From assembly GCA_944390365.1 (NCBI GenBank), contig CALXPW010000001.1, forward strand, positions 57,907 through 121,906: a DNA stretch of 64,000 nt, given 5' to 3'. The notes beneath the pieces were generated by a model. It was not told the origin of the DNA and searched no databases. It worked only from the letters and a program-made list of their open reading frames with translations. The DNA is from an uncultured Clostridia bacterium. GTDB taxonomy: Bacteria; Bacillota; Clostridia; TANB77; CAG-508. The translations under genes were made by a program, and so were the position numbers. The stretch's first letter is position 1, and every line of letters begins with the position of its first letter. Positions 3,956 through 57,637 of the stretch are shown piece after piece.

Positions 3956-5128
3956 TTATCCAAATAATCCTCTCTTTTTAACAGGTGGTTGTTCATTCAT
4001 AGTTTTTGCAAGTTCTACCATTAAATCTCTTTGCTCTTTAGTAAGTTTCTTTGGAACTTGAACAAGTACAGTAAATACAAAGTTTCCTTGTGAGCCATTA
4101 TTTATATTCTTAAATCCTTTTCCTCGAATTGTAAACTTTGTTCCTGGCTGAGTTCCGTCTGGAATTCTATATATTTCCTTTGAGCCATCAACCATAGGTA
4201 TTTCCAAATCTGCTCCCAATGTAGCTTGTGTAAATGTTATTGGTACTTCACAAAGCACATCTTGACCTTTTCTTGTAAAGATGCTATGTCTTTTTATATG
4301 TATAGTTATATAAAGGTCTCCCTTGGCACCACCTTTTTCTCCTGGCTCTCCTTCGCATCTTAATACAATTGTTTGATTCTCATCAATACCTGCTGGAATC
4401 TTTACAGAAACACGCACTTGCTTTCTAACAATTCCTTTTCCCTTACACTCTACGCAAGGATCTGGAATAATTTCACCTGTTCCATTACAATTTGTACATG
4501 GTCTTACAGTTTGCATCTGTCCAAATATTGTTGTTTGTGTTTGCTTTATTTGACCAGTTCCATGGCACATTGAACACGTTTGCTTTTTAGTTCCAGGTCT
4601 TGCTCCTTCTCCATGACAAGTTGGGCAAGTTTCATTTCTTGTTAAATTTATCTGCTTTTCTGTTCCTAAAAAAGATTCTTCAAATGTAATATCCAAATTT
4701 GCTCTTAAATCAGCTCCCTGTTTTGGTCCGTTATTATGTCTAGTATTACTTCTTCCACCAAAGCCACCACTGAAAAATGAAGAGAAGATATCTCCTAAGT
4801 CGCCAAAATCACCAAATCCGTCAAATCCTCCTGAAGAGGAATATGAATAATAACCATTTCCTCCACCAAAAGGACCACCAGCTCCTCCTCCAAATCCTTG
4901 GCTTGGATCTGCTGTTCCAAATTGATCATACATTTTTCTTTTTTCAGGATTAGATAATACTTCATAAGCCTCATTTACTTCTTTAAACTTTGCCTCTGCT
5001 TCTTTTTTATTGTCTGGATTAGCATCTGGGTGATATTTTTTAGCAAGCTTTCTATATGCCTTTTTTAGTTCCTCATCGCTTACGTTTTTATCTACTCCCA
5101 ATATTTCATAATAATCCTTATTTGCCAT
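3956..5128 (-). CDS. dnaJ: Molecular chaperone DnaJ
   Basis: J-domain (YYEILGV...HPD), G/F-rich region and four CxxCxGxG zinc-finger repeats. The true start MANKDYY is at 5128 with a GGAGAG RBS; the ORF-track start at 5188 is an extension. Confidence 0.9.
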
Positions 5129-5214
5129 ATACTTCTCTCCTTCAAAAAGTCTTATTATCATAATGTTTGAGGTTGGAGTTTTTTCCAACCTCTAAACACA
5201 ATTATCTTGGAATC

Positions 5215-7182
<1,968 letters not shown>

Positions 7183-9644: not shown

Positions 9645-10913
9645 TTACTCTCCACTATTGTGTCCACCAATAAGTGTATTTCTAACTAATGTTGTTGCAC
9701 CTTCTTGTAAATCCATTCCTCTTAAAATTTTATTTTTTCCCATTTCACTTTTTATTCTATTTATTACTAATTCTAATTTTCTTTCTTTATCTATCTTTTT
9801 TTGGTCTTTAAATAGATTTAGTTGCACATAATCATCTTCCCTTACATTTGCAAAACTAATACCTATTCGTCTTATTCCAATGTTTCTATTTGTAGTTCTA
9901 TCATAGAGCCTTAAAAAGGCACTTACTAAATCAGAATATACATTTGTATAATTATTAGTTCTTTCTGTGCCTCCTGTTGCAGGAATAACATCTTTAGAAT
10001 ATCCTATATATAGTTTTACTGTATCTGTAGATAAATTCTCGTCAATTAGGCGTAAACTACCTAATTCCACCATTTCTTTTAAAACTAATCTTGCTTTTTC
10101 AAAAGAATAATCTTCAAACAACACTTGACTATTGCTAATGCATCTTGCTTGTGGCTTGTATTTTTTTATATCTTCAATAGTACAACTTTCTCTGCCCCAC
10201 GAATGGTCTATTAAATATTCTGCATTAACTCCAAATTCTTTATATAATTTCTTTGGTTCTGCATTGGCCACATCATACATATCATATAATCGCAATTTGT
10301 TTAGTCTTCTTTCTATTCCGTGTCCAATTTGCCAAAAGTCTGTAAGTGGCTTGTGATGCCATAATTCTTTTTTATATTTTTCTTCATCTAAATATCCTAT
10401 ATTAGTAGCACTATGCTTTGCAGTAATGTCTAACGCAACTTTTGCTAGATACATATTAGTTCCAATTCCAGCAGTAGCCGTTATCCCATAATTTTTAAAT
10501 ACGTCTTTTATTATGGTTTTAGCAAGCTCTATTGGTGTTAATTTATACATTTTCAAATAGTTTGTAGCATCCATAAAGGCCTCATCTATCGAGTATACGT
10601 GAATATCTTCTTTTGAAAAGTATTTTAAGTAAATTGCATATATATTAGCAGAATATTCTATATATTTTTTCATTCGAGGAAGAGCTACAATGTATTGTAT
10701 ATTTTGTGGTATTTCATATATTCTGCATCTATTTCTTACTCCAAGCATTTTCATTTTTGGACTTACTGCTAAACATATTGCGCCCTTTCCTCTACTTGGA
10801 TCTGCAACTACCAAATTAGTGTTAAATGGGTCTAATTTTCTTTCTACACATTCAACAGATGCATAAAATGTTTTTAAATCAATACATAAATATATTCTTT
10901 GCATTTTTACCAC
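9645..10913 (-). CDS. Y-family translesion DNA polymerase (UmuC/DinB-like; UvrX/YqjW type)
   Basis: The N-terminus (IYLCIDLKTFYASVE) and the YSIDEAFMD palm motif are typical of the ImpB/MucB/SamB family. 422 aa. Confidence 0.85.
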   Translation of the reverse strand: MVKMQRIYLCIDLKTFYASVECVERKLDPFNTNLVVADPSRGKGAICLAVSPKMKMLGVRNRCRIYEIPQNIQYIVALPRMKKYIEYSANIYAIYLKYFSKEDIHVYSIDEAFMDATNYLKMYKLTPIELAKTIIKDVFKNYGITATAGIGTNMYLAKVALDITAKHSATNIGYLDEEKYKKELWHHKPLTDFWQIGHGIERRLNKLRLYDMYDVANAEPKKLYKEFGVNAEYLIDHSWGRESCTIEDIKKYKPQARCISNSQVLFEDYSFEKARLVLKEMVELGSLRLIDENLSTDTVKLYIGYSKDVIPATGGTERTNNYTNVYSDLVSAFLRLYDRTTNRNIGIRRIGISFANVREDDYVQLNLFKDQKKIDKERKLELVINRIKSEMGKNKILRGMDLQEGATTLVRNTLIGGHNSGE

Positions 10914-11035
10914 TATCCTTTTTGTATTTACTCATAATCATATTATACTATTTTGTTTTTAAAATGTAAACACTTGTTTGTGTTTTCGAATGTGGTAATT
11001 TTTTACATTATTAGATATTTTTTCCTTATTTTTTA

Positions 11036-11075
11036 ACGTTAAACGCCGTGGCGTAAACCACGGCGCTAACTTATG
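11036..11075 (-). terminator. GC-rich hairpin terminator downstream of the 11082..11354 gene
   Basis: CGCCGTGG-tttacg-CCACGGCG followed by a T-rich tract on the minus strand. Confidence 0.5.
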
Positions 11076-11081
11076 GAACGT

Positions 11082-11354
11082 TTATTTTACCCGGTGCTTT
11101 TCAATAAAATCTTTTGCGCACCATTCATGGTTTTCATTCTCATCTGCCCTATATGCTACAAAGCACATCAGGATAAAAATGAGTCCTGCCACCACCAAAG
11201 CTAATATACTTCCATTGTAGTAGAACAGATACAGGCAAAATGCCATGCCAATGATTGCCCCAATCATTGTTGCAAAAAATAAAATTTTCCGTCCCATTTT
11301 TTGTTCCTCCTTGAATTCACAAGTAGTTTTTGTACTAATAGCTATTGCTATCAA
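11082..11354 (-). CDS. Hypothetical small membrane protein (2 TM helices)
   Basis: 90 codons with GGAGG upstream of the start and a hydrophobic core. Confidence 0.4.
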   Translation of the reverse strand: MIAIAISTKTTCEFKEEQKMGRKILFFATMIGAIIGMAFCLYLFYYNGSILALVVAGLIFILMCFVAYRADENENHEWCAKDFIEKHRVK

Positions 11355-11500
11355 ACTATATTATATCACAATTTACATAATTTTACAATTTTTAAAATTG
11401 TATTTTTTAAAAAATTTTTCGAATATTTTTTTATTTTTTGTATACACTAATAATAGTCTTAAAATTTTACAGAGCAAAATCTGCTTAAGTGGAGGTTTTT

Positions 11501-24558: not shown

Positions 24559-24864
24559 TCTTTTACACCTCCTCATGGATATATAACCTATGAACTAGTC
24601 ATAAGTAAGGATTAAAAAATAGCAACGCTATTTTTTTAACGCTACTATTCTATCATCATTTTATAAAAAAATCAAGTATAATTTGGTAAATTTACATAAT
24701 CTTTTTTCTCTGAGTTGACACATTTTCAAAAATATAGTAATATACTATCTATAACTTTAAGAATAGCTTTACAAATAATAAAAATTTATAAAGAGAGGAG
24801 TTATCATTTTTTAACCAGAATTATATAAATATAGTAATTGTTTAAATAGATTTGGTTATTGTTT

Positions 24865-25050
24865 TAGCGCCTGGACATAGGGTATTTCTTTTAGTTTTAA
24901 CTAAAAATTTATTAAATTCACTATGTTGACGAGGTAGAGGCTTATCGAAAGATTCGGCGGATGGTCTCTTGGTACTAGATTACTACCACAAATATTAGTT
25001 AAAGCCTTGCAGTGATGCAAGTATACAAAGCTAATAGAGTAGTCTTTATT
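24865..25050 (+). ncRNA. glmS ribozyme: glmS ribozyme (GlcN6P-dependent self-cleaving riboswitch)
   Basis: A cleavage-site motif A|GCGCC is at 24865. The conserved core GTTGACGAGG-tAGAGG-CTTATCGAAAGATTCGGCGGATGGTCTC matches the B. subtilis glmS ribozyme core. It lies immediately upstream of glmS. Boundaries are approximate. Confidence 0.8.
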
Positions 25051-25127: not shown

Positions 25128-26981
25128 ATGTGTGGTATTGTAGGATACGTTGGTAGCAAAAAAGCTACACCTATACTAATTGATGGTCTTTTATGTTTGG
25201 AGTACAGAGGTTATGACTCTGCCGGAATTGCAACTATAGAGAAAGATGTAATTAAGGTTATGAAAGATAAAGGTAGAGTAAATAACTTGTATAATTTGGA
25301 AGGAATAAATGATTTAGAGGGAACTGTGGGTATTGCGCATACTAGATGGGCAACACACGGCAAACCATCTAAAGAAAATTCTCACCCTCATATGGATAAT
25401 AGCAATACATTTGCAGTTGTTCATAATGGTATTATCGAAAATTATTCTGAACTAAGAGATTTTTTAAGTTCTAAAGGATATAATTTTATCTCTCAAACAG
25501 ATACAGAGGTTATTCCTAACTTAATACATTATCATTATACAAACGGACCTGAATCTGTAATTGAGGATAATCACGAAAGAGTTTTAACTGCAGTAAAATC
25601 TGCTGTACAAGATTTAAAAGGAAGCTATGCAGTTGAGGTTATTTCCCCTCTATGCCCTGATGAGGTTATTGTGGTTAGAAAGGATAGTCCACTTGTTATA
25701 GGAAAGGGTACAGATGGAAATTATATAGCATCAGATATTCCTGCTATATTAAAGTACACTAAAGATTTTTATTTATTAGATGATAATGAATTTGCAGTAG
25801 TTACTGCTGATAAGGTTAAATTTTATGATAATAGCCTAACAGAGCATAACAAAGCAATTAAAAATATTGAATGGGATGCAAATGCAGCCGGAAAAGATGG
25901 ATATGAAGATTATATGCTTAAAGAAATTTTTGAGCAACCATCTGCTATAAGAGAAACAATCGGTTCAAGATTCCGTTTAGGAGAAAAATGTTCTTTTGAT
26001 GATATGGATATTTCTAAAGAGTATTTGAGCAAAGTAAATAAAATATACATTGTTGCTTGTGGTACAGCAATGCACGCTGGATTAGCTGGCAAAAATTTAA
26101 TAGAAAAACTTTGCAAAATTCCTACAGTGGTAGATATTGCATCAGAATTTAGATACAGAGACCCACTTATTGATGAAAATACACTTTGTATATATATAAG
26201 TCAGTCTGGTGAAACAGCTGACACCATTGCAGCTTTAAAACTTGCTAAATCTAAAGGTGCCAAAACCCTTGCAATTTCTAACGTTATTGGAAGCTCTATT
26301 ACAAGAGAGGCAGACTATTCTATTTACACTCACGCAGGCCCAGAAATTGCTGTTGCATCTACAAAGGCATATACTTCACAAGTTGTTCTGCTTGCAATTC
26401 TCGCAATGCATTTTGCTGAAATATTAGGAACTTGTGATGCAGCTTGTATAGAAAGCTTGAAATCTGACTTGATAGATTTACCATCTAAAGTAGAGCAAAT
26501 ATTAGACAACATAGATATAGTTAAAGCTTTTGCAGAAAAAGTATATACAGAAAAAGATATGTTCTTTTTAGGCAGAGGCACAGATTATAATGTTGCATTA
26601 GAGGGATCTTTAAAATTAAAAGAAATATCTTACATCCATTCAGAAGCTTATGCTGCAGGTGAATTAAAGCACGGCCCAATAGCACTTATCGAAAATGGTG
26701 TAACAGTTGTAGGTATTATTACAGACGACAAATTGGTTGAAAAATCTATTAGCAACATTCAAGAAGTTGTTACAAGAGGAGCAAAAACTTTAATTATTAC
26801 AAATCAAATATTACCTAACAGTCACTTTGATTACGTAATAAATATTCCAAAAACTAATCCTCTAATTTCACCAATACTTTCTGTTGTACCAATGCAACTT
26901 TTGTCTTACTATATTGCTAAGGCTAAAGGATTAGATGTAGATAAACCACGTAATCTTGCGAAATCTGTTACAGTAGAGTAG
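25128..26981 (+). CDS. glmS: Glutamine--fructose-6-phosphate aminotransferase
   Basis: N-terminal MCGIVGY (Ntn amidotransferase), two SIS domains and the C-terminal ...AKSVTVE. 617 aa. Confidence 0.95.
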   Translation: MCGIVGYVGSKKATPILIDGLLCLEYRGYDSAGIATIEKDVIKVMKDKGRVNNLYNLEGINDLEGTVGIAHTRWATHGKPSKENSHPHMDNSNTFAVVHNGIIENYSELRDFLSSKGYNFISQTDTEVIPNLIHYHYTNGPESVIEDNHERVLTAVKSAVQDLKGSYAVEVISPLCPDEVIVVRKDSPLVIGKGTDGNYIASDIPAILKYTKDFYLLDDNEFAVVTADKVKFYDNSLTEHNKAIKNIEWDANAAGKDGYEDYMLKEIFEQPSAIRETIGSRFRLGEKCSFDDMDISKEYLSKVNKIYIVACGTAMHAGLAGKNLIEKLCKIPTVVDIASEFRYRDPLIDENTLCIYISQSGETADTIAALKLAKSKGAKTLAISNVIGSSITREADYSIYTHAGPEIAVASTKAYTSQVVLLAILAMHFAEILGTCDAACIESLKSDLIDLPSKVEQILDNIDIVKAFAEKVYTEKDMFFLGRGTDYNVALEGSLKLKEISYIHSEAYAAGELKHGPIALIENGVTVVGIITDDKLVEKSISNIQEVVTRGAKTLIITNQILPNSHFDYVINIPKTNPLISPILSVVPMQLLSYYIAKAKGLDVDKPRNLAKSVTVE

Positions 26982-34598: not shown

Positions 34599-34617
34599 AA
34601 TCTATATAGTAAATGAA

Positions 34618-34641
34618 AAGAGGCTACTTAAGTAGCCTCTT
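34618..34641. terminator. Perfect palindrome AAGAGGCTACTT/AAGTAGCCTCTT after the DUF3800 gene (possible bidirectional terminator)
   Basis: A 24-bp perfect inverted repeat. The T-tract is weak on the plus strand and modest on the minus strand. Confidence 0.4.
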
Positions 34642-34825
34642 CCCAACTAGACTGACGTACTTAACATACGCTTAATTATTTAAAATCAGTATCTAGCTAT
34701 CGACCGAACAAAGGTATATTGCCTTCTGGTATAATAATTGTAACATCTTGAGAAAAAAATGTCAACAATTATATCTTTATTTTATTCAAAAAATGAAAAA
34801 ATATTCTTCTACTACAACAAAAATT

Positions 34826-38286: not shown

Positions 38287-39642
38287 TTATATTGGCAAAT
38301 CTACCGCGTCAAATAGCCATGTACCCATATATAATTGTATACATGGAACTATAATTACGATAACTAGGAATATTAAGAATATACCAACTATAGAATATAC
38401 TACTTGTGGTAATACCGCCATAACTTTTTGCATTAAGTTGTTTATATCCATTTCCATATATTCTACTATTTTCCTCATCATTTCTGGTAAGTCTGTTTGC
38501 ATACCTATTTTTAACATTTCTGTTTGCATTGATGAGCAAAGTCCAGAATTTTCAAATGGTTCTATCCAAGATGCACCAATTAATATATTGTTTATTGCTG
38601 TTTCAATAATTGAAAGTAGTACATAGTTTTTAACAACCGCCTTACTAACTTCTAATGATTCCTGAATTCTCATTCCATTTTCTAGGTTTAATAGCATTGC
38701 TCTCATAAGTCTTGAAAAGTCCATTGCAAATATCAATTTTCCGAAAATCGGCATTTTATATTTAAAATAATGAAAATTATATTTTCCTTTTGGTGTATTT
38801 ACATATAGCACTACAAGACCTGTGACTATTGCAATCATAATTACTGGTATATACCAAACATTAATAAATCCATTACAAAAATCAACAAACCATAATGTTA
38901 TTTCTGGCAATGTTTCTGTTGTCCCTGCATCTGAGAAAGCATCTTGTATCATTGGAATAATATATGCAACACCAAAAATTAAAATTGCAATTATTGCCAA
39001 TAATTGTAGTACATTTGGTATTATAATTTTTCTTAATCTATTACCTGTTGTATCTACGTCCTCAAGATATTTAACTGCTTGTTCTAATGATTTTGTTAGC
39101 GATCCTGATAATTCTCCAACTCTTATCATATTCGTATAAATATAAGGAAATATATTTGAATAGTATTCCATTGTTGTATACATGTATTCTCCGGATTCAA
39201 CTCCAGCTAAAATATCCTGTAAAACTCCTCTTAACGAAAGATTCTCTGTACTATCAATAATAGTACTTAGTGCATGTATATTATTGAAGTTTGCCTTTTT
39301 TAATAAATAAAAGTTTTGTGTAAATATTACAATATCTCTTGTAGTTATTTTTTCATCTCTTGATAATGCTAAATTTACTCTTTCCTTTAATGAAGGTTTT
39401 GTTCTTTCTCTACCTTGCATTATATTAGCAGAATCAGCTTGTTTCATAATATCATCGATATCCATTATATTTCTTCTGTTTGCTTTAGCTTTTCTGCTTT
39501 TATAACCAACTTGTATAATGCTTATAGGAAGTAAATCATTATTTTTTAGCTTTTTTACGAGATTGTTTTTGTTTACATCCTCTACTCTATTTCGCACGAT
39601 CTGTCCTTTTGACGTTACTGCTCTATAAATATATTCTGGCAT
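38287..39642 (-). CDS. pilC: Type IV pilus assembly platform protein PilC (GspF family)
   Basis: 451 aa, polytopic membrane protein with T2SS-F repeats. It is the last gene of the pilus cluster. Confidence 0.8.
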   Translation of the reverse strand: MPEYIYRAVTSKGQIVRNRVEDVNKNNLVKKLKNNDLLPISIIQVGYKSRKAKANRRNIMDIDDIMKQADSANIMQGRERTKPSLKERVNLALSRDEKITTRDIVIFTQNFYLLKKANFNNIHALSTIIDSTENLSLRGVLQDILAGVESGEYMYTTMEYYSNIFPYIYTNMIRVGELSGSLTKSLEQAVKYLEDVDTTGNRLRKIIIPNVLQLLAIIAILIFGVAYIIPMIQDAFSDAGTTETLPEITLWFVDFCNGFINVWYIPVIMIAIVTGLVVLYVNTPKGKYNFHYFKYKMPIFGKLIFAMDFSRLMRAMLLNLENGMRIQESLEVSKAVVKNYVLLSIIETAINNILIGASWIEPFENSGLCSSMQTEMLKIGMQTDLPEMMRKIVEYMEMDINNLMQKVMAVLPQVVYSIVGIFLIFLVIVIIVPCIQLYMGTWLFDAVDLPI

Positions 39643-39676
39643 TTTTTCTCCTTTCTACAAAATATTAATTACTGAT

Positions 39677-40786
39677 CTATTTATTAATTTTTTCTTTCTT
39701 TATTTTTAATTGCATTATAGTTCTATTTAATGTTTCTATATTTTTTTCTTCAATTTGTGCCTTTGCTTGATCTAACGTTATAACATCATCCACAAATAAC
39801 TCAGCAATTGAGTTTATTAAACCTATGCTACCTTTTTCTAGATTACTTTGAATAGCATCTTCTATTTCTGATACACTTATTTTTTCTTTTCTTATTATAC
39901 CAGAAACAATGTTATCTACAACCATTACTTCTGGAACTAATACTAACTTTCCTGATTTTGATGGTAATAATCTTTGAGAAATAACAAGCTTTAATAATGA
40001 AGATATTAAGTATTTTACTGTTTGTTGATCTCTTATTTCATAAAAGTTTACCATTCTATCGATAGTCTCTGCACAAGATTTTGTGTGAAGTGTTCCTATA
40101 ACTAAATGTCCTGCTTCTGCTGTTTCTATTGCTGCCTCCATTGTTTCTCTATCTCTAATCTCTCCTATTACTAGTATATCACAGTCCTCTCTTAAACAGT
40201 TCTTTACACCATCACTATAGCATAAGCAATCTCTTCCTGCACCAATTTCTTTTTGCACTATAACAGATTTTTTACTTGTGTGTTTATACTCTACTGGGCT
40301 CTCTAGTGTTAGTATTTTTTTGTTCTGATTCTCATTTATTTCATTTATTAACGCATTTAAAGTTGTTGTTTTACCCGAGTTAGTTTTTCCTGTAACTAAT
40401 ATTAAGCCTTGTGGTTGATATGTCATTCTTCTTACTATATCTGGTACACCTAATTCTTCATATGTTGGTAATTCGTTTTTTATAAGTCTTAGGGTGAATA
40501 TTGGTATTTCGTCTGCTAAAGAAATATTTACCCTTAGACGTATATCTTCAAATTCATACGACATATCTAGTTTTTTAGTTTCTTTAAAAACATTATCCTT
40601 ATCCACATTTCCTCTTACAAAATAATCATATATATCATACATATCATCTTCTGATAATGGTGATGGGCATTCATATTCAATTAAATCTCTTCTAATTCTT
40701 AGCATAGGCTTTAAGTTACATATTAAGTGAACATCTGATGCATCTTTTTCCTTTGCTGTATCTAAAACTTTATCAATATCTATCAT
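39677..40786 (-). CDS. pilT: Type IV pilus retraction ATPase PilT
   Basis: 369 aa. Walker A GKTNSGKTTT, and the size and pattern of PilT-class secretion ATPases. Confidence 0.8.
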   Translation of the reverse strand: MIDIDKVLDTAKEKDASDVHLICNLKPMLRIRRDLIEYECPSPLSEDDMYDIYDYFVRGNVDKDNVFKETKKLDMSYEFEDIRLRVNISLADEIPIFTLRLIKNELPTYEELGVPDIVRRMTYQPQGLILVTGKTNSGKTTTLNALINEINENQNKKILTLESPVEYKHTSKKSVIVQKEIGAGRDCLCYSDGVKNCLREDCDILVIGEIRDRETMEAAIETAEAGHLVIGTLHTKSCAETIDRMVNFYEIRDQQTVKYLISSLLKLVISQRLLPSKSGKLVLVPEVMVVDNIVSGIIRKEKISVSEIEDAIQSNLEKGSIGLINSIAELFVDDVITLDQAKAQIEEKNIETLNRTIMQLKIKKEKINK

Positions 40787-40803
40787 TGGTTACCTCCAAA
40801 ATA

Positions 40804-42429
40804 TTAATATAGGGCTAATTTATTATTTAACTCTTGCATATTTGTTATTCCTCTTATTACCTTGTTTATTCCATCAACAATTAGTGGAACATAACCAGAT
40901 TTTAATGCTTCTTTTCTTATATCGATTGTAGATTTATTATCCACTATAAGAGTTCTTAGTTCATCATTTATTACTAGGATTTCAAATATACCAATTCTAC
41001 CAAGATATCCAGTATTATTACATTTTTTACAACCAAAAGTATCAAAAGTTTTTTTGCCCTCTAAATCAAATTTGATATTGTATTTTTCCCCTATCTTTGC
41101 AATATATTCTTTTTCCTGGGTTGTATAATCTCTTTCTTTTGAACAATATGGACATACTTTTCTTACCAATCTTTGTGATACTGAAGTTGCCAAAGTACTA
41201 GAAATATCGTAATTTGATACACCCATTTTTCTAAGTCTTGTTATTACTTCTATTGCATCTATTGTATGAATTGTAGATAAAACATAATGTCCTGTTTGAC
41301 CCGCTTGCATAGCTATTTCAGCAGTTTCTTGATCTCTTATCTCACCAACTAAAATTATATCAGGATCTTGCCTTAAAACTGTCCTTAATGATTCTGCAAA
41401 TGTAACCTTTGGATCTACTTCTATTTGGTTTAGACCATTTATTCTTATTTCCACTGGATCTTCTATTGTTGTAATATTTATTTCTGGTTTATTCAAATAA
41501 TCTATAATACTATATAATGTAGTAGTTTTACCTTCTCCTGTTGGTGCAGCTATAACTGTTATACTATTTTTCTTATTAAATGCATCCTTTACTAATTTTT
41601 CATCTTGTGGAAATCCTAAATCAAATATTGATTTTACATCTGCATTTTTCTTAAGCAATCTTAGAACAAATTTTTCTCCATATATATTTTTTTGTGAAGA
41701 TACACGAATGTTATAATCTGGGTACAATATAATTCTACCATCTTGCGATTCTTGTTTTTCTTGATGCATATTAGATATTGCCTTTAATCTACCTACTATT
41801 TGAGCTTGTTTTTCCTTACTTATATTAGCTGCATCAATTAATACACCATCAATTCTATATCTTACTCTCATATTTTCTTGCATTGGCTCTATATGAATAT
41901 CGCTTGCTCTTTTTTCCATAGCTGTTTTTATAACACTATCTATAAAACTAGAAACATCAGCATTAACATCTATACTTTCAGAACTTCCTGCAAAAGAATT
42001 TAGTATTAAATCTATATTTGTTTCGAAAGTAATATATTTTTCCATTATAAGACCTTTATTCAAAAGTAAAAGTCTTACTGTTTCAACAGCTCTTCTATTT
42101 GAAGTATCTGCAAAACAAACTTTTATTTTTCCATTTGACTCTTCAAAAGGTATTGCTTTATATTGTTTTGCAATGTCTAAAGAAATATAATCAAGTATAT
42201 TTACTTTTATATCTGATTCTTTTAAGTATATTGCTTTTTCATCTAGTATTTCTCCCATTGCATTTATTAATACATAGGGGTCACAAAGTCTTAAAATATT
42301 TAATATATCTCCTATTTTTTTCTTAGGTTCTGCTTTTTGGTAGTCTAATGCTCTTTCAATATCTTCTTCTGTTACAATCCCTCTTTTTACTAGCTCTATT
42401 CCTAATGGTTGTCTTTTTTTTGAATCCAT
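40804..42429 (-). CDS. pilB: Type IV pilus assembly ATPase PilB (GspE family)
   Basis: 541 aa with an N-terminal GSPII domain, Walker A APTGEGKTTT, a CxxC...CxxC zinc motif and Asp/His boxes. Confidence 0.85.
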   Translation of the reverse strand: MDSKKRQPLGIELVKRGIVTEEDIERALDYQKAEPKKKIGDILNILRLCDPYVLINAMGEILDEKAIYLKESDIKVNILDYISLDIAKQYKAIPFEESNGKIKVCFADTSNRRAVETVRLLLLNKGLIMEKYITFETNIDLILNSFAGSSESIDVNADVSSFIDSVIKTAMEKRASDIHIEPMQENMRVRYRIDGVLIDAANISKEKQAQIVGRLKAISNMHQEKQESQDGRIILYPDYNIRVSSQKNIYGEKFVLRLLKKNADVKSIFDLGFPQDEKLVKDAFNKKNSITVIAAPTGEGKTTTLYSIIDYLNKPEINITTIEDPVEIRINGLNQIEVDPKVTFAESLRTVLRQDPDIILVGEIRDQETAEIAMQAGQTGHYVLSTIHTIDAIEVITRLRKMGVSNYDISSTLATSVSQRLVRKVCPYCSKERDYTTQEKEYIAKIGEKYNIKFDLEGKKTFDTFGCKKCNNTGYLGRIGIFEILVINDELRTLIVDNKSTIDIRKEALKSGYVPLIVDGINKVIRGITNMQELNNKLALY

Positions 42430-42490
42430 AGAACTTCTCCTTTCATTTGTTATTTATATATTTATATTATTTGCATTTTTATAAAGATTA

Positions 42491-42940
42491 TTACCAATAT
42501 CTTAAGGTAAAATCTACATCTTGCATTACAGATCTATTATCACTCTTTCCAATTTGCATGTTAACATTAATAATGTTCTTACTCATTGTTCCAACCTTGT
42601 ATGGTTCTTCTTCTGTAAAAGTACATTTCATTATATATTCTGCTATTCTTAAATCATTTCTATATATTGCTCCATCTTTAAATGTATATGTAGGTCCGTT
42701 TTCAAATTCTATTGTTGTATCTGTTACTGTTGCAGAACTATAGTTTTTTATATCAGCTACAAAGAACATTGTAAATTTATTAAATTCACCTAAATATTTA
42801 GGAGTATCTAGTACTTCTCCAATGTTTCCATAAAAGTAAGTGCTCATTGTGGTCATTGCTGCCATAACTATTGAAAGAGCTAAAATATATATAACAAGTG
42901 ATGTTAAGGTAATACCTTTTTGATTAGTTTTAATTTGCAT
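42491..42940 (-). CDS. Pilin-like protein (prepilin-type N-terminus KG|ITLTS, lacks Glu5)
   Basis: A class III signal-peptide-like N-terminus followed by a hydrophobic helix. 149 aa. Confidence 0.5.
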   Translation of the reverse strand: MQIKTNQKGITLTSLVIYILALSIVMAAMTTMSTYFYGNIGEVLDTPKYLGEFNKFTMFFVADIKNYSSATVTDTTIEFENGPTYTFKDGAIYRNDLRIAEYIMKCTFTEEEPYKVGTMSKNIINVNMQIGKSDNRSVMQDVDFTLRYW

Positions 42941-42969
42941 TTAACTTTAAGCACTCCTTTCTAAAATAA

Positions 42970-43389
42970 TTACATTTCTTTTATTTTTAGTCTTTGTACT
43001 TTATATTCTGTCGTTTCATCATCAAATTTATAACTTACCTTTAAATTTACTATTTTTATAACATCTTCCAAGTTTTCACCATAGTCCGAAAATTGTAAGT
43101 CTATATTAAATCCTGCTGGAATTGAGAATTTTTCTTTATAATATTTACCATCTGTATTTTGAGCATCTTCATATGAAATTTTATCAATATCTTCTAATAT
43201 CTCTACCGCATAACTTGTCATTTGTGCCATTAGTCTTGTTTGCATATTTGTTTTATACACATACGTCATTAGTCCTGCAATTGTTCCAATAAAAATTGTT
43301 AATATTAAGCAACCAGCAAGTAAGTCTTGCATAGTAAAACCATTTTCTGATTTTAACTTAAATTTTATTCTTTGTATAATTTTTTTCAT
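42970..43389 (-). CDS. Pilin-like protein (G|FTMQD, Asp at +5)
   Basis: MKKIIQRIKFKLKSENG|FTMQDLLAGCLIL.... The start is taken at MKK (43389) to avoid overlap with pilD. Confidence 0.5.
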   Translation of the reverse strand: MKKIIQRIKFKLKSENGFTMQDLLAGCLILTIFIGTIAGLMTYVYKTNMQTRLMAQMTSYAVEILEDIDKISYEDAQNTDGKYYKEKFSIPAGFNIDLQFSDYGENLEDVIKIVNLKVSYKFDDETTEYKVQRLKIKEM

Positions 43390-43403
43390 CATATCACCTA
43401 AAT

Positions 43404-44219
43404 TTATAAATAAAATATCATAAAGTTTGTCGCAAGTAACACAATTATATTCGCTACACACATATAAAATCCTATTGGAATTTTCTCATTCTCTACTTTA
43501 ACTTTTTTTACTACTTTGCTGTTTTTCTTGTGTAGTTTACATATTATTAATTGTATTGACGTAGCAAGTAATGTAATTATAACTGTACCAATATAAACAG
43601 TTTCATATGTAAATAGAACCATCAGCATTGATAATATTAGTATATCTATTGCATAACTATCTTGACCTTTTTTTCGTAAATATCCAATACTAAACAGTAA
43701 TAATAAGCATGATAGTATTAAATAAATGACATATCCATAGATACTAGGATCATTTTCTATTATATATAGATATATCATATATATTGCAACACAAATAAAG
43801 CCAAATAAAAGAACTGGCTTTTCTATTCTTATTCTTTCTTTATCAATTCCTGCAATAATAAATAGTGTTGCTAAATACAATGCTCCAACTATTAAATATA
43901 TAACAGTCTTGCTATTCATTGAAAATATACTTAATTTTATAGATAATGCAAATAATACAAAAACTAAACCAGATAATATTTCTAATAGCAAATATCTTAT
44001 TCTTATTTTTTCTTTACAATATCTACATTTTCCACCTAAAAAAGCATAACTGAATATAGGAATCATATCCCAAAAACCTAATTTATGTTTGCATTTTGGA
44101 CAATATGAACGTGTATGTGTTATATCTTGTCCTATAGGTATTCTATATACTGCTAGTGTAAAAAAGCTACCAAATAATGCACCTATGCAAAATATTAGTA
44201 AATATAATATATAGTCCAT
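43404..44219 (-). CDS. pilD: Prepilin peptidase PilD (A24 family)
   Basis: N-terminal zinc-binding CPKCKH...CRYC. Polytopic membrane peptidase, 271 aa. Confidence 0.85.
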   Translation of the reverse strand: MDYILYLLIFCIGALFGSFFTLAVYRIPIGQDITHTRSYCPKCKHKLGFWDMIPIFSYAFLGGKCRYCKEKIRIRYLLLEILSGLVFVLFALSIKLSIFSMNSKTVIYLIVGALYLATLFIIAGIDKERIRIEKPVLLFGFICVAIYMIYLYIIENDPSIYGYVIYLILSCLLLLFSIGYLRKKGQDSYAIDILILSMLMVLFTYETVYIGTVIITLLATSIQLIICKLHKKNSKVVKKVKVENEKIPIGFYMCVANIIVLLATNFMIFYL

Positions 44220-48582: not shown

Positions 48583-49494
48583 TTAAAATTTTATTAATTT
48601 ATCAATTGTTTCTTTTATATACCTTCCTGCTGTCTTTGGCATTTCTTTCCCTGGGATTCCTAAAGCAGTTATTACTTTTAATCCAAGCTTTTGTGCACTT
48701 GCTTTGTCAATTCCTCCTGGATTCGATGCCACATCTATTATTAAAACATTTTTATTAAATAATTTTAATTGTTCTTCTGTTAATACAATATGTGGTACTG
48801 TGTTAATTATTATATCAAATCTATCAGAGAATCTTGGCAATTCTGAATATAATAATGGAATATACCTTTTTTCTCTTATCCATGCCAAATCGCTTTCTTT
48901 TCGTGCTACACAATAAACATTAGCACCTAATTTGCTGAACCTATCACATAATATTTTTCCAATTCGTCCAAATCCACATATTAGCACATTGCTTTCATGT
49001 ATTGTCTCTTCTCTTTCTTCTATTGCTATTTTTATTGTGCCTTCTACTGTTGGAATAGTATTTAAAATAGTAAGTTCTTCTATTTCTAATAAATCTACTA
49101 AATCTATGTTTTCTAATTTTTTTGTTTCTTTTTCTATATAGTAGTTTTTAGGAATTCCTCCTGCAAAAAATTTTTTATTAGAATTTTCTTTAAAAAGCAT
49201 ATTCTTTAATTCTTCCAATTTAATTTCTTTATTTGCAAATGGAGCATTTACAGTAATATTGTCTTTTGTAAAAGGCATGCCACTTACAATGTAATTTGAA
49301 TTTTTAATAGTCTCTTCTATGCTGTTGCATAAAAAAATGTTGTTGTACTCTGCTTCTTCTATTTTTTTGTTATAGCCTTTTCCATTATCATAATATTTTT
49401 CTACACCATAAGTGTAAACGTTGTATTCTTCTGTTGCATACATCTCTGCAAGTCTTACAATTCGTAAATCTCCACCTATTATTGATATATTCAT
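48583..49494 (-). CDS. dpaA: Dipicolinate synthase subunit A homologue (SpoVFA/DpaA-like)
   Basis: IIGGDLR, NTIPTVEGTI, ICGFGRIGK...LGANV, INTVP, IIDVASNPGG and ALGIPGKEMPKTAG each align with B. subtilis SpoVFA motifs. No DpaB homologue is adjacent. Confidence 0.7.
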   Translation of the reverse strand: MNISIIGGDLRIVRLAEMYATEEYNVYTYGVEKYYDNGKGYNKKIEEAEYNNIFLCNSIEETIKNSNYIVSGMPFTKDNITVNAPFANKEIKLEELKNMLFKENSNKKFFAGGIPKNYYIEKETKKLENIDLVDLLEIEELTILNTIPTVEGTIKIAIEEREETIHESNVLICGFGRIGKILCDRFSKLGANVYCVARKESDLAWIREKRYIPLLYSELPRFSDRFDIIINTVPHIVLTEEQLKLFNKNVLIIDVASNPGGIDKASAQKLGLKVITALGIPGKEMPKTAGRYIKETIDKLIKF

Positions 49495-55032: not shown

Positions 55033-57363
55033 TTATTTCAACTTTTCTTCTGCTCTTTGCACTGCTTCTCTCTCATCCCAGAAGTATTGTACTCCTTTTA
55101 TTTCTTGGTATTGTTCGTGTCCTTTGCCTATTAGAAGTATAATGTCCCCCTCTTGTGCATTTTTCATCGCATATTCTATTGCTTCTTGTCTATCATCTAT
55201 TGTTATATATTTTCCACCACTTCTGTTTAATCCTGTTATAATGTCATTATTTATAGATTCCATTTCTTCAAAACGTGGGTTGTCCTCTGTAAGGATAGTA
55301 AGACCTGCATATTTTCCAGATATTTCTCCCATATCAAATCTTCTATCTCTTGCTCTGTTTCCTCCACCACCAAAGATGCATACTATTCTTTTTGGCTTGT
55401 ACTCCATAATTGTTTCCATTAAATTGGTCATTTCGTCTTCATTATGAGCATAATCTATTATTAGTTTATACTTATCATTTGAAATTGCAAGCTCCATTCT
55501 GCCTTTTACATATACTGTTTCTAATGCTTTCTTCATTGAATCTACTTTTAGTCCCAATTCATTTGCTATTGTTATAGCACATAAAGCATTATATACAGAA
55601 AATCTACCTGGAATTGCAACTTCAAATTTATCATTTACTTTTCCTGTTACATCAAATCCCATTCCTAAGAATTTGTCTGTCATAATAAATTTGATGTTTT
55701 CTGCTCTTAAGTCTACATTTTCTGAATTTATACCAAACTTTATTATATTGCAAGTATGGTTTTTAATAACATTTTCCCAGCTCTTATCATCTACATTTAT
55801 TATTCCAGTTTTGCATTTTTGGAATAACAAGCTTTTGCAGTACATATATTCTTCAAAGCTTTCGTGCTCATTTGGTCCTATATGCTCTTTAGAAATATTT
55901 GTAAATACCCCATAGTCAAATGTAAATCCATCTACTCTATGCATTTTTAGTCCTTGTGAAGACACTTCCATTATTGCATATTTGCAACCATCTTCTACCA
56001 TTTCTCTAAATAGCTTTTGGATTTCATAATTTTCTGGTGTAGTATTATGAAGAGTTATTTTTCTCTTTCCTATAAACGCACCTATTGTGCCAATTAGCCC
56101 AGCCTTTTCCCCATTTTCTTCAATCATTTTCTTTAAAATAGTTGAAGTTGAAGTTTTTCCTGCTGTTCCTGTAATTCCTACAACAGTTAGCTCTTTTGCT
56201 GGATATTTAAAATATGCTGATGAGATTTCTGCCATTGCTTCTCTTGAAGATTTTACCTTTATTATTGTAACATCTTCATCAGGAAGAACAATGTCTTTTT
56301 CTACAACTAATACCTTTGCCCCTTTTTTTATTACATCTGGTATATATTTATGTGAGTCTGATGTAGAACCAACTTTTGCTATATACATATCGTTTGGCTC
56401 TACTTTTCTAGAATCGTCTTTAATATCTGAAATATCTACATCTAGGCTTCCTTTTACAAGCTCATAATCCACATTTTGTAACAAATCTTGCAATTTTGTA
56501 GTTCTATATTTGTTTATTATATCGTCTACATCAATTTCTGACTCGAATACTGTATGTGATGGGCCTTTCATAAACATTTTTCCTGTTTCTTCGTCCCAGT
56601 TAGTTTCTAGTATTCCACCTATTTGGTGAACACTTACTTTTCTATCACATCTACCTGTTAAAACTGCTGCAACTGTAGCAGTACAACAACCTGTACCACA
56701 ACCTATAGTTTCTCCTGTTCCTCTTTCCCATTCTCTCATTTTTATATTGTTTCTATCTATTACTTGGGCAAAAGTTACATTTGTTTTGTTTGGGAACAAG
56801 TCTGTTTTATACTCAATAGCTTTTCCGTATTTTTCTACATCAAAATTATCTACATCATCTATAAACATTACACAATGAGGATTTCCCCACGATACTGCAG
56901 TAATTTTAAAAGTTCTGTCTAGTATTTTTACCTCTTGCTCTACAAATTCTTTCAAGTTTGTATTTACTGGTATTAAGTTTGTATCTAATACCGGTTTTCC
57001 AATATTTGCTTCAATATTAACTGCTTTTCCATTTTCTACAGTTAATTTAACGTGTTGAATTCCACCAAGTGTTTCTATTTTTAGTTCTGTTTTATCTGTT
57101 AACTTATGGTCATATACATATTTGCTTAGAGACCTTAGAGCATTGCCACACATTTCTCCTTCTGTTCCATCTGGGTTGAACATCCTCATTCTAAAATCTG
57201 CCACATCTGATTTGCAGATTAGCACTAGCCCATCTGAGCCTACTCCAAAGTGCCTATTGCTTATGTATTTTGCAAGTTCGTGTACATTGTTTATTTTTTG
57301 ATTTATTGCATCTATATATACATAGTCGTTTCCGTATGCTTGCATTTTTGTAAATCTTGTCAC
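55033..57363 (-). CDS. dapF-murE: Bifunctional fusion: diaminopimelate epimerase (DapF) + UDP-MurNAc-tripeptide (meso-DAP-adding) ligase MurE
   Basis: The N-terminal ~280 aa are DapF (FTKMQAYGNDY, SWGNPH, ERGTGETIGCGTGCC). The rest is a Mur ligase (VVGITGTAGKTSTS) carrying the DNPR motif (LTEDNPRF) that marks DAP-adding MurE. The frame is continuous. The start is taken at GTG 57363, which has GGAGG 8 nt upstream. Confidence 0.75.
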   Translation of the reverse strand: MTRFTKMQAYGNDYVYIDAINQKINNVHELAKYISNRHFGVGSDGLVLICKSDVADFRMRMFNPDGTEGEMCGNALRSLSKYVYDHKLTDKTELKIETLGGIQHVKLTVENGKAVNIEANIGKPVLDTNLIPVNTNLKEFVEQEVKILDRTFKITAVSWGNPHCVMFIDDVDNFDVEKYGKAIEYKTDLFPNKTNVTFAQVIDRNNIKMREWERGTGETIGCGTGCCTATVAAVLTGRCDRKVSVHQIGGILETNWDEETGKMFMKGPSHTVFESEIDVDDIINKYRTTKLQDLLQNVDYELVKGSLDVDISDIKDDSRKVEPNDMYIAKVGSTSDSHKYIPDVIKKGAKVLVVEKDIVLPDEDVTIIKVKSSREAMAEISSAYFKYPAKELTVVGITGTAGKTSTSTILKKMIEENGEKAGLIGTIGAFIGKRKITLHNTTPENYEIQKLFREMVEDGCKYAIMEVSSQGLKMHRVDGFTFDYGVFTNISKEHIGPNEHESFEEYMYCKSLLFQKCKTGIINVDDKSWENVIKNHTCNIIKFGINSENVDLRAENIKFIMTDKFLGMGFDVTGKVNDKFEVAIPGRFSVYNALCAITIANELGLKVDSMKKALETVYVKGRMELAISNDKYKLIIDYAHNEDEMTNLMETIMEYKPKRIVCIFGGGGNRARDRRFDMGEISGKYAGLTILTEDNPRFEEMESINNDIITGLNRSGGKYITIDDRQEAIEYAMKNAQEGDIILLIGKGHEQYQEIKGVQYFWDEREAVQRAEEKLK

Positions 57364-57432
57364 TGTTAATTCCTCCTCTTTTCGCAAAAGGGGACGGGTT
57401 TATTTTGTAAAAAGACTATTTTATCTTTTTAT

Positions 57433-57578
57433 AAAATTATATGTATTTTATTTTTTGTCGGAGTGCTTAAGGTGGGGACCGACAAGTTTACAAACTGTTG
57501 AACTGAATGTTAGTGAAGTTTATACAGTTTGTACGATGTTGGGGGCCGGAGACCAAAAAGAAAATACATATAATTTTG
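57433..57578 (+). repeat. Palindromic repeat family 1, copy E, nested inside an outer perfect 28-bp inverted repeat (57384..57411 / 57601..57627)
   Basis: Core GAGTGCTTAAGGTGGGGACCGACAAGTTTACAAACTGT...ACAGTTTGTACGATGTTGGGGGCCG. Outer arms GCAAAAGGGGACGGGTTTATTTTGTAAA / TTACAAAATAAACCCGTCCCCTTTTGC. Confidence 0.85.
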
Positions 57579-57637
57579 AAATATAAAACAAATCTGATAT
57601 TTACAAAATAAACCCGTCCCCTTTTGCAAATTTTCTA

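Follow-up and report, generated by a model that had tools for sequence, protein, structure and literature searches.

Among described proteins, the closest to the gene reported here are the Mur chimeras surveyed by Shirakawa et al. (2023, PNAS; PMC10214165), in which the pairings MurE-MurF, MurC-Ddl, MurC-MurB, MurG-MurC, MurD-FtsW and MraY-MurG occur. In the MurE-MurF of Bordetella pertussis (8F5D), the MurC-Ddl of Chlamydia and others, a Mur ligase lies head-to-tail with a pathway enzyme across little or no linker; such chimeras were born of neighbouring genes, and fixed stoichiometry and a higher local concentration of intermediates have been proposed for them. The locus described here lies in a 64,000-nucleotide stretch of the genome of an uncultured Clostridia bacterium (assembly GCA_944390365.1, contig CALXPW010000001.1, positions 57,907 to 121,906; the whole stretch is hereafter called the window), and consists of a dapF gene, for diaminopimelate (DAP) epimerase, joined in frame to a murE gene of the meso-DAP-adding type. 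The product shares all of these properties of the Mur chimeras and, like them, is a single polypeptide joining a Mur enzyme to a peptidoglycan-pathway enzyme, yet it falls outside the six catalogued pairings: its partner is a supply enzyme of the DAP/lysine pathway placed N-terminal to MurE, and the genes lie outside the division and cell wall (dcw) cluster. We consider it about 80% probable that this is a genuine gene fusion encoding a bifunctional peptidoglycan-precursor enzyme, with both activities predicted from the sequence.

Other known systems are similar in part. The bifunctional MurF/alanine racemase (NF008897, PRK11930) also fuses the maker of a D-configured building block to the Mur ligase step at which that block or a derivative of it is used, although the racemase there depends on pyridoxal phosphate (PLP) whereas the epimerase here is a cofactor-free two-cysteine enzyme, and both the enzyme pair and the domain order differ; the NF008897 model matches the window protein through its Mur-ligase part only (79 bits against a cut-off of 804). 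The DapF of Chlamydia, a DAP epimerase and glutamate racemase (NF038284; PMC5885031), is likewise a DapF with double duty in peptidoglycan precursor supply, but there one domain carries two activities, whereas here two enzymes are fused, and the window protein scores well below that model (100.6 bits against 350). Compared with the standalone DapF proteins of B. anthracis (2OTN) and E. coli (4IJZ) and the meso-DAP-adding MurE proteins of E. coli (1E8C) and M. tuberculosis (2WTZ), the two halves are full-length and motif-complete, and they differ in being covalently joined through four residues. Each half is a textbook enzyme and an antibiotic target, and the novelty lies in the pairing, which would be the first Mur-ligase chimera whose partner makes the amino-acid substrate of the ligase.

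The coordinates of the gene and its parts are collected in Table 1. An earlier note on this DNA had reported an uninterrupted frame of 784 codons; the frame is indeed uninterrupted, but 784 amino acids is the length of the maximal open frame in the open reading frame (ORF) list, counted from a TTG (55033..57387, reverse strand), whereas the gene itself probably has 776 codons, and the end points that the note assigned to it, 55033-57363, are those of a GTG start. The GTG at 57363-57361 is the likely start codon because a GGAGG sequence (57372-57376) lies 8 nt upstream of it, this site is kept in relatives, and an independent gene call in a public assembly gives the same 776-amino-acid product; in one related locus (L004) an ATG occupies the position of the GTG. 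The Pfam matches along the protein are DAP_epimerase, in two stretches, followed by the N, M and C domains of the Mur ligases. The junction between them reads ...FESEIDVDDIINK-YRTT-KLQDLLQNV..., and the peptide that spans it is ...IINKYRTTKLQDLLQNVDYELVK. There is no stop codon of any kind at the junction, and the fused frame is therefore independent of the genetic code assumed.

The N-terminal half was claimed to be a complete DAP epimerase with both catalytic cysteines, and it has every mark of one. It matches the NCBIfam DapF model TIGR00652 at 264 bits (cut-off 114.65) over profile positions 2-268 of 270, and PF01678 in the two stretches already mentioned. In alignments to solved structures its motifs agree with those of the B. 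anthracis and cyanobacterial DapF proteins; C72 (CGN, within ...EMCGNALR...) and C222 (CGTG, within ...IGCGTG...) fall at the positions of the catalytic cysteines in 2OTN and 9MRO, which in the H. influenzae/E. coli numbering of DapF are C73 and C217, and the GNPH motif is present.

The claim that the C-terminal half is a complete MurE carrying the DNPR motif of the meso-DAP-adding enzymes is borne out equally well. The equivalog model for meso-DAP-adding MurE, NF001126, is matched at 500 bits (cut-off 373) over positions 2-481 of 486, and the MurE model TIGR01085 at 439 bits (cut-off 257); PF01225, PF08245 and PF02875 all match this half. The models for L-lysine-adding MurE (NF010628, 357 bits against 536) and for bifunctional MurE/MurF (NF008896, 400 bits against 1023) stay below their cut-offs. 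The P-loop, the lysine of ...YCKSLLF, GGGGNR, DNPR and GKGHE align with their counterparts in the E. coli and M. tuberculosis enzymes, and where the window protein has DNPR the aligned lysine-adding MurE of Thermotoga (4BUB) has DDPR. A confident AlphaFold2 model built on 42 sequences (predicted local distance difference test score 88.7, predicted template-modelling (TM) score 0.70) contains two halves that superpose on DapF structures with TM scores of 0.84-0.90 and on MurE structures with TM scores of 0.81-0.87, relative to the target; none of the matched Protein Data Bank chains covers both halves.

That the fusion is not peculiar to this assembly is clear from its relatives. A protein search found full-length fused homologues in more than 100 clusters at 90% identity, all with PF01678 and Mur-ligase domains and 52-97% identical to the window protein, and the identical 776-amino-acid protein occurs on at least nine contigs. 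A set with a single genome for each GTDB species yielded 274 related loci, of which 78 were kept after ranking by tblastn, a ranking that favours dapF/murE pairs in the same frame; a single ORF runs across both modules in 33 of the 78, dapF lies directly upstream of a separate murE in 42, and three have murE only. One fused frame is uninterrupted in a circular HiFi genome of 1.57 Mb (OZ007016.1). The fused genomes are labelled as uncultured Clostridia, Clostridium or Oscillospiraceae, with isolate or bin names that point to the chicken, human and rabbit (Lapin) gut, and the unfused ones are mostly Lachnospiraceae, including Diplocloster agilis ASD5720, Lachnospiraceae bacterium G11 and metagenome-assembled genomes of Roseburia. 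Orthologues in many related genomes are thus fused, a point that the earlier note had proposed to check, and its reading of a single polypeptide with no missing stop codon or frameshift holds.

The relatives also show how the fusion came about. In the unfused loci, translated in the dapF frame, the end of DapF (...ESEIDVSHIIxK and a stop codon) is followed by a spacer of 7-100 nt with a GGAG ribosome-binding site and then by MKLxxLL; at the window junction (...ESEIDVDDIINK-YRTT-KLQDLL) four residues separate the native DapF end from MurE residue 2. Since the stop codon, ribosome-binding site and murE stand at the same place in the unfused relatives, the fusion arose by loss of a short spacer: an ancestral close-packed dapF-murE pair lost the stop of dapF, the start codon of murE and the few nucleotides between them that held the ribosome-binding site, and 4-6 linker residues remained. 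The fused junctions fall into three length classes, of 33, 39 and 45 nt, all of which keep the reading frame. The adjacency of dapF and murE, which the earlier note overlooked, is ancestral and widespread. In neighbour-joining trees the fused loci together with a nested unfused group (L024, L026, L053, L055, L056, L057 and L062) form a clade with 100% bootstrap support. Monophyly of all fused loci has bootstrap support of only 24% for the concatenated sequences, 51% for DapF and 0% for MurE, too little to tell one origin of the fusion from several. As a separate observation, dapF and murE are in one reading frame in 29 of the 42 unfused loci (L024-L067, junction region at about 6830-6900), often with a single stop codon between them, in a sample of 80 loci that the tblastn ranking biases toward such pairs; we dropped this statistic as evidence of read-through for that reason. 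In one Lachnospiraceae locus (L068) a second MurE paralogue with 44% identity lies shortly downstream of dapF-murE, at 9966-11435.

If both halves are active, the DapF module, with its two DAP-epimerase domains and its Cys72/Cys222 pair, would convert LL-diaminopimelate to meso-diaminopimelate, and the MurE module would join the latter to UDP-N-acetylmuramoyl (UDP-MurNAc)-L-Ala-D-Glu in an ATP-dependent reaction. At meso-DAP the pathways to lysine and to the cell wall part. The fusion would place supply and use of meso-DAP together at this branch point, expressed 1:1, and so might tilt the branch toward the wall with the two activities in a fixed ratio. In E. coli DapF, Y268 holds together an obligate dimer, the only active form of the enzyme (PMC6061791). 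As F273, which aligns with E. coli Y268, is only 17 residues ahead of the MurE start, the fused protein may form a homodimer in which two MurE arms extend from a DapF2 core. The protein would offer a natural, stable construct for probing proximity channelling in cytoplasmic wall synthesis, with the unfused relatives (70% identity) as built-in controls.

Several considerations weigh against a bifunctional enzyme that channels its intermediate. The activity of both halves is predicted from sequence only, and a second standalone dapF or murE elsewhere in the genome would make the fused copy an accessory one. Several known Mur chimeras unite non-sequential steps, and the chimera literature cautions that what fusions provide is often stability or stoichiometry and not channelling (PMC10214165); a fusion by itself does not therefore prove channelling, and the direct passage of meso-DAP from DapF to MurE that the earlier note proposed would be a further step beyond covalent linkage, since meso-DAP may simply be set free close to the ligase. 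In some of the 45-nt linker variants the codon where MurE used to start is still ATG or GTG (M or V), and in the lineages that keep these codons MurE might be separately initiated. Finally, the fused loci enclose an unfused group in the tree, and their history may have been a single fusion that was later split again or two to three separate fusions.

The gene directly upstream, which encodes a PLP enzyme of the Cys/Met-metabolism family, is the third member of the conserved cluster and was overlooked in the earlier note. In about 73 of the 78 loci (L001-L075, at about 4700-5990) it lies directly upstream in the same orientation; it is upstream in L080 as well, and is the sole other gene kept across both fused and unfused loci; in Lachnospiraceae loci such as L040, L044 and L075 only about 20 nt separate it from dapF. 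The enzyme belongs to the trans-sulfuration family and is nearest to MccB-type cystathionine gamma-lyase and cystathionine gamma-synthase, but it lies below every NCBIfam equivalog cut-off, the best being that for the MccB-type cystathionine gamma-lyase (485 bits against 594), and the only source name among its 120 closest homologues is 'cystathionine gamma-synthase'. The association of this gene with dapF and murE recurs in many gut Firmicutes.

One reading, which we regard as very improbable, is that the PLP enzyme, DapF and MurE form a route for making and installing a thioether analogue of DAP, meso-lanthionine or a cystathionine isomer, instead of or besides DAP itself: cysteine-derived units coupled by the PLP enzyme would be epimerised at one centre by DapF, and MurE would then attach the resulting compound at position 3 of the peptidoglycan stem. 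The conservation of the upstream gene and its distance from all equivalog models are in its favour, and Richaud et al. (1993) are said to have engineered E. coli to live on thioethers made by MetB, with DapF required. For the DAP-type MurE enzymes of E. coli and Anabaena, D,L-lanthionine is roughly as good a substrate as D,L-DAP (PMC12681378, citing Mengin-Lecreulx 1994), and the Fusobacterium wall contains lanthionine made by a PLP enzyme (PMC11602996), and hence the cluster could serve a thioether analogue. The Fusobacterium precedent is less close than it seems, as the lanthionine synthase there is encoded by cysK1, and FN1732, the DapF-like 'lanthionine epimerase' that we had considered as a precedent and then rejected, is a histidine racemase (PMC11602996). 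Against the thioether route, too, the window DapF and MurE have sequences canonical for DAP, both passing DAP-specific equivalog models with DNPR and GKGHE intact; no PLP-DapF or triple fusion was found among the 120 closest PLP homologues or the fused matches; and an Rfam search of the window and ten related loci found no riboswitch or T-box near the gene. The cysK1 product presumably belongs to a PLP fold family other than that of the Cys/Met-metabolism enzyme in the window. The link of methionine with DAP and lysine through the aspartate family is a mundane reason for the clustering, and an aspartate-family operon is the plainer reading. Were the thioether route real, it would parallel in nature both the engineered E. 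coli pathway and the Fusobacterium lanthionine wall, and the DapF-MurE fusion in small-genome gut Clostridia would tighten its last two steps.

It is very unlikely that the fused frame is real while one half is a catalytically dead scaffold, or that MurE is made chiefly from an internal start. The M or V at the former MurE start of some linker variants (NR[M/V]KKL) would suit an internal start, and DapF has a known second role as a binding partner of RppH (PMC6061791). However, the catalytic and substrate-binding motifs of both halves (C72, C222, GNPH, the P-loop GTAGKT with K403, K510, DNPR and GKGHE) are invariant in 117 of 117 fused proteins, and in the linker class of the window the Met is gone and no Shine-Dalgarno-like sequence was seen before the TTG and GTG codons near the junction. 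The remaining explanation, a sequencing or assembly error that erased a stop codon or frameshift between adjacent genes, could appeal to the 42 loci with separate neighbours and to two divergent fused singletons that resemble recent stop losses of separate origin, or else errors (P0106, in which the spacer and Met are still present, and P0107, in which the DapF end is truncated), but it is exceedingly improbable for the window, where the stop codon, ribosome-binding site and MurE ATG are all absent and more than one base has thus changed, and is already refuted for the fused clade by the 33 species-level genomes from independent projects, the HiFi assembly among them, by the repeated recovery of the identical protein and by linker length differences that are all whole codons.

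The genuine fusion that we prefer is rare among sequenced proteins. In a library of 1.84 billion representatives at 50% identity, one of the 150 best matches is a DapF-MurE fusion (P0092, 70% identical), and a more distant one should rank among those 150; the other long matches checked there are MurE-MurF, MurE-FemAB and MurE-aminotransferase proteins. Two of these are themselves unusual MurE fusions, a MurE-FemAB of 933 amino acids (P0168) and a MurE-class I/II aminotransferase of 849 amino acids (P0283), and the aminotransferase of the latter might be another DAP-pathway enzyme such as DapL. NCBIfam models exist for MurE/MurF, MurF/Alr and DapF/MurI, and none was matched for a DapF-MurE bifunctional protein; no name from public sources is attached to any fused homologue. 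The statement that this is not a described bifunctional enzyme stands as far as the literature searched is concerned, in which no DapF-MurE fusion is described, but needs qualifying in that public protein sets already contain the architecture, without a name for it, in the clusters counted above, and the fused protein is certainly deposited in InterPro/UniProt as an automatic prediction. The terms DapF and epimerase have no occurrences in the survey of Mur chimeras, which left out sequences from unidentified species (PMC10214165), and it is among unidentified species, the excluded group, that the DapF-MurE fusion lives.

Table 1. Coordinates of the fused gene, its parts and other features of the window
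Feature	Coordinates	Strand	Remarks
Fused dapF-murE gene	55033..57363	(-)	776 codons plus TAA stop at 55033-55035
DapF module, residues 1-285	56509..57363	(-)	Ends at native DapF C-terminus ...IINK; C72, 57148-57150; C222, 56698-56700
Spacer YRTT (four codons), residues 286-289	56497..56508	(-)	Remnant of the stop/ribosome-binding site/ATG region of unfused relatives
MurE module, residues 290-776	55036..56496	(-)	Starts at the residue following the Met of unfused MurE (KLxxLL)
P-loop GTAGKT, residues 399-404	56152-56169	(-)	MurE module
K510			MurE module; predicted carbamyl-lysine equivalent, from alignment to MurE structures
DNPR, residues 694-697	55273-55284	(-)	MurE module
GKGHE, residues 746-750			MurE module; DAP-binding residues
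Ribosome-binding site AGAGGAGG	57372..57379	(-)	8 nt 5' of GTG; conserved in L001, L003 and L031
Intergenic element, 244 nt	57384..57627	.	Perfect 27-nt terminal inverted repeats, 57385-57411 and 57600-57626
Cys/Met-metabolism PLP enzyme gene, 392 aa	57638..58816	(-)	Directly upstream; third conserved cluster member
glmS ribozyme	24855-25046	(+)	87 bits
glmS	25128-26981	(+)	
DUF3800-I RNA family match	34607-34737	(-)	64.8 bits; gathering score 44.2
Type IV pilus-type cluster	38287-44219	(-)	
DpaA-like gene	48583-49494	(-)	Dipicolinate synthase subunit A

The PLP gene and the fused gene are 275 nt apart, and a small inverted-repeat element (Table 1) lies in this gap. In two loci 98% identical to the window (L001 and L031) the element is absent and a short GGGGAC...GTCCCC hairpin is found instead, and L003 has a 50-nt palindrome. 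In L079, a contig of a different sample whose fused protein is identical to that of the window, the element, at 9737-9979, is flipped relative to its flanks: the inner 94 nt are identical to those of the window at 58 of 94 positions in the same orientation and at 89 of 94 when inverted. This arrangement would come from inversion of the DNA segment that the repeats enclose, or else from two insertions at one site that differ in orientation. Another copy of the repeat-end motif AAAGGGGACGGG is located about 7 kb away in the same contig, at 2857, and hints at a small dispersed repeat family.

The rest of the window is an ordinary Firmicute chromosome, with pyruvate formate-lyase and its activase, an hrcA-grpE-dnaK-dnaJ heat-shock operon, and genes for MreB, LexA, Obg, a Znu-type transporter, UppP, a pyrophosphatase and signal peptidase I. 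No dcw cluster, other DAP-pathway gene or second dapF or murE was found in the window, in which the ORFs at about 29-37 kb were not run against Pfam. A consensus scan for promoters and terminators gave fewer promoter-like sites than shuffled sequence and yielded no informative site. The DpaA-like gene stands beside uppP/bacA without an adjacent DpaB gene, and a match to the DUF3800-I RNA family exceeds its gathering score. The type IV pilus-type cluster includes two T2SSE ATPases, a T2SSF platform protein, a prepilin peptidase and several small unannotated ORFs, and the glmS ribozyme lies directly upstream of glmS in the standard arrangement.

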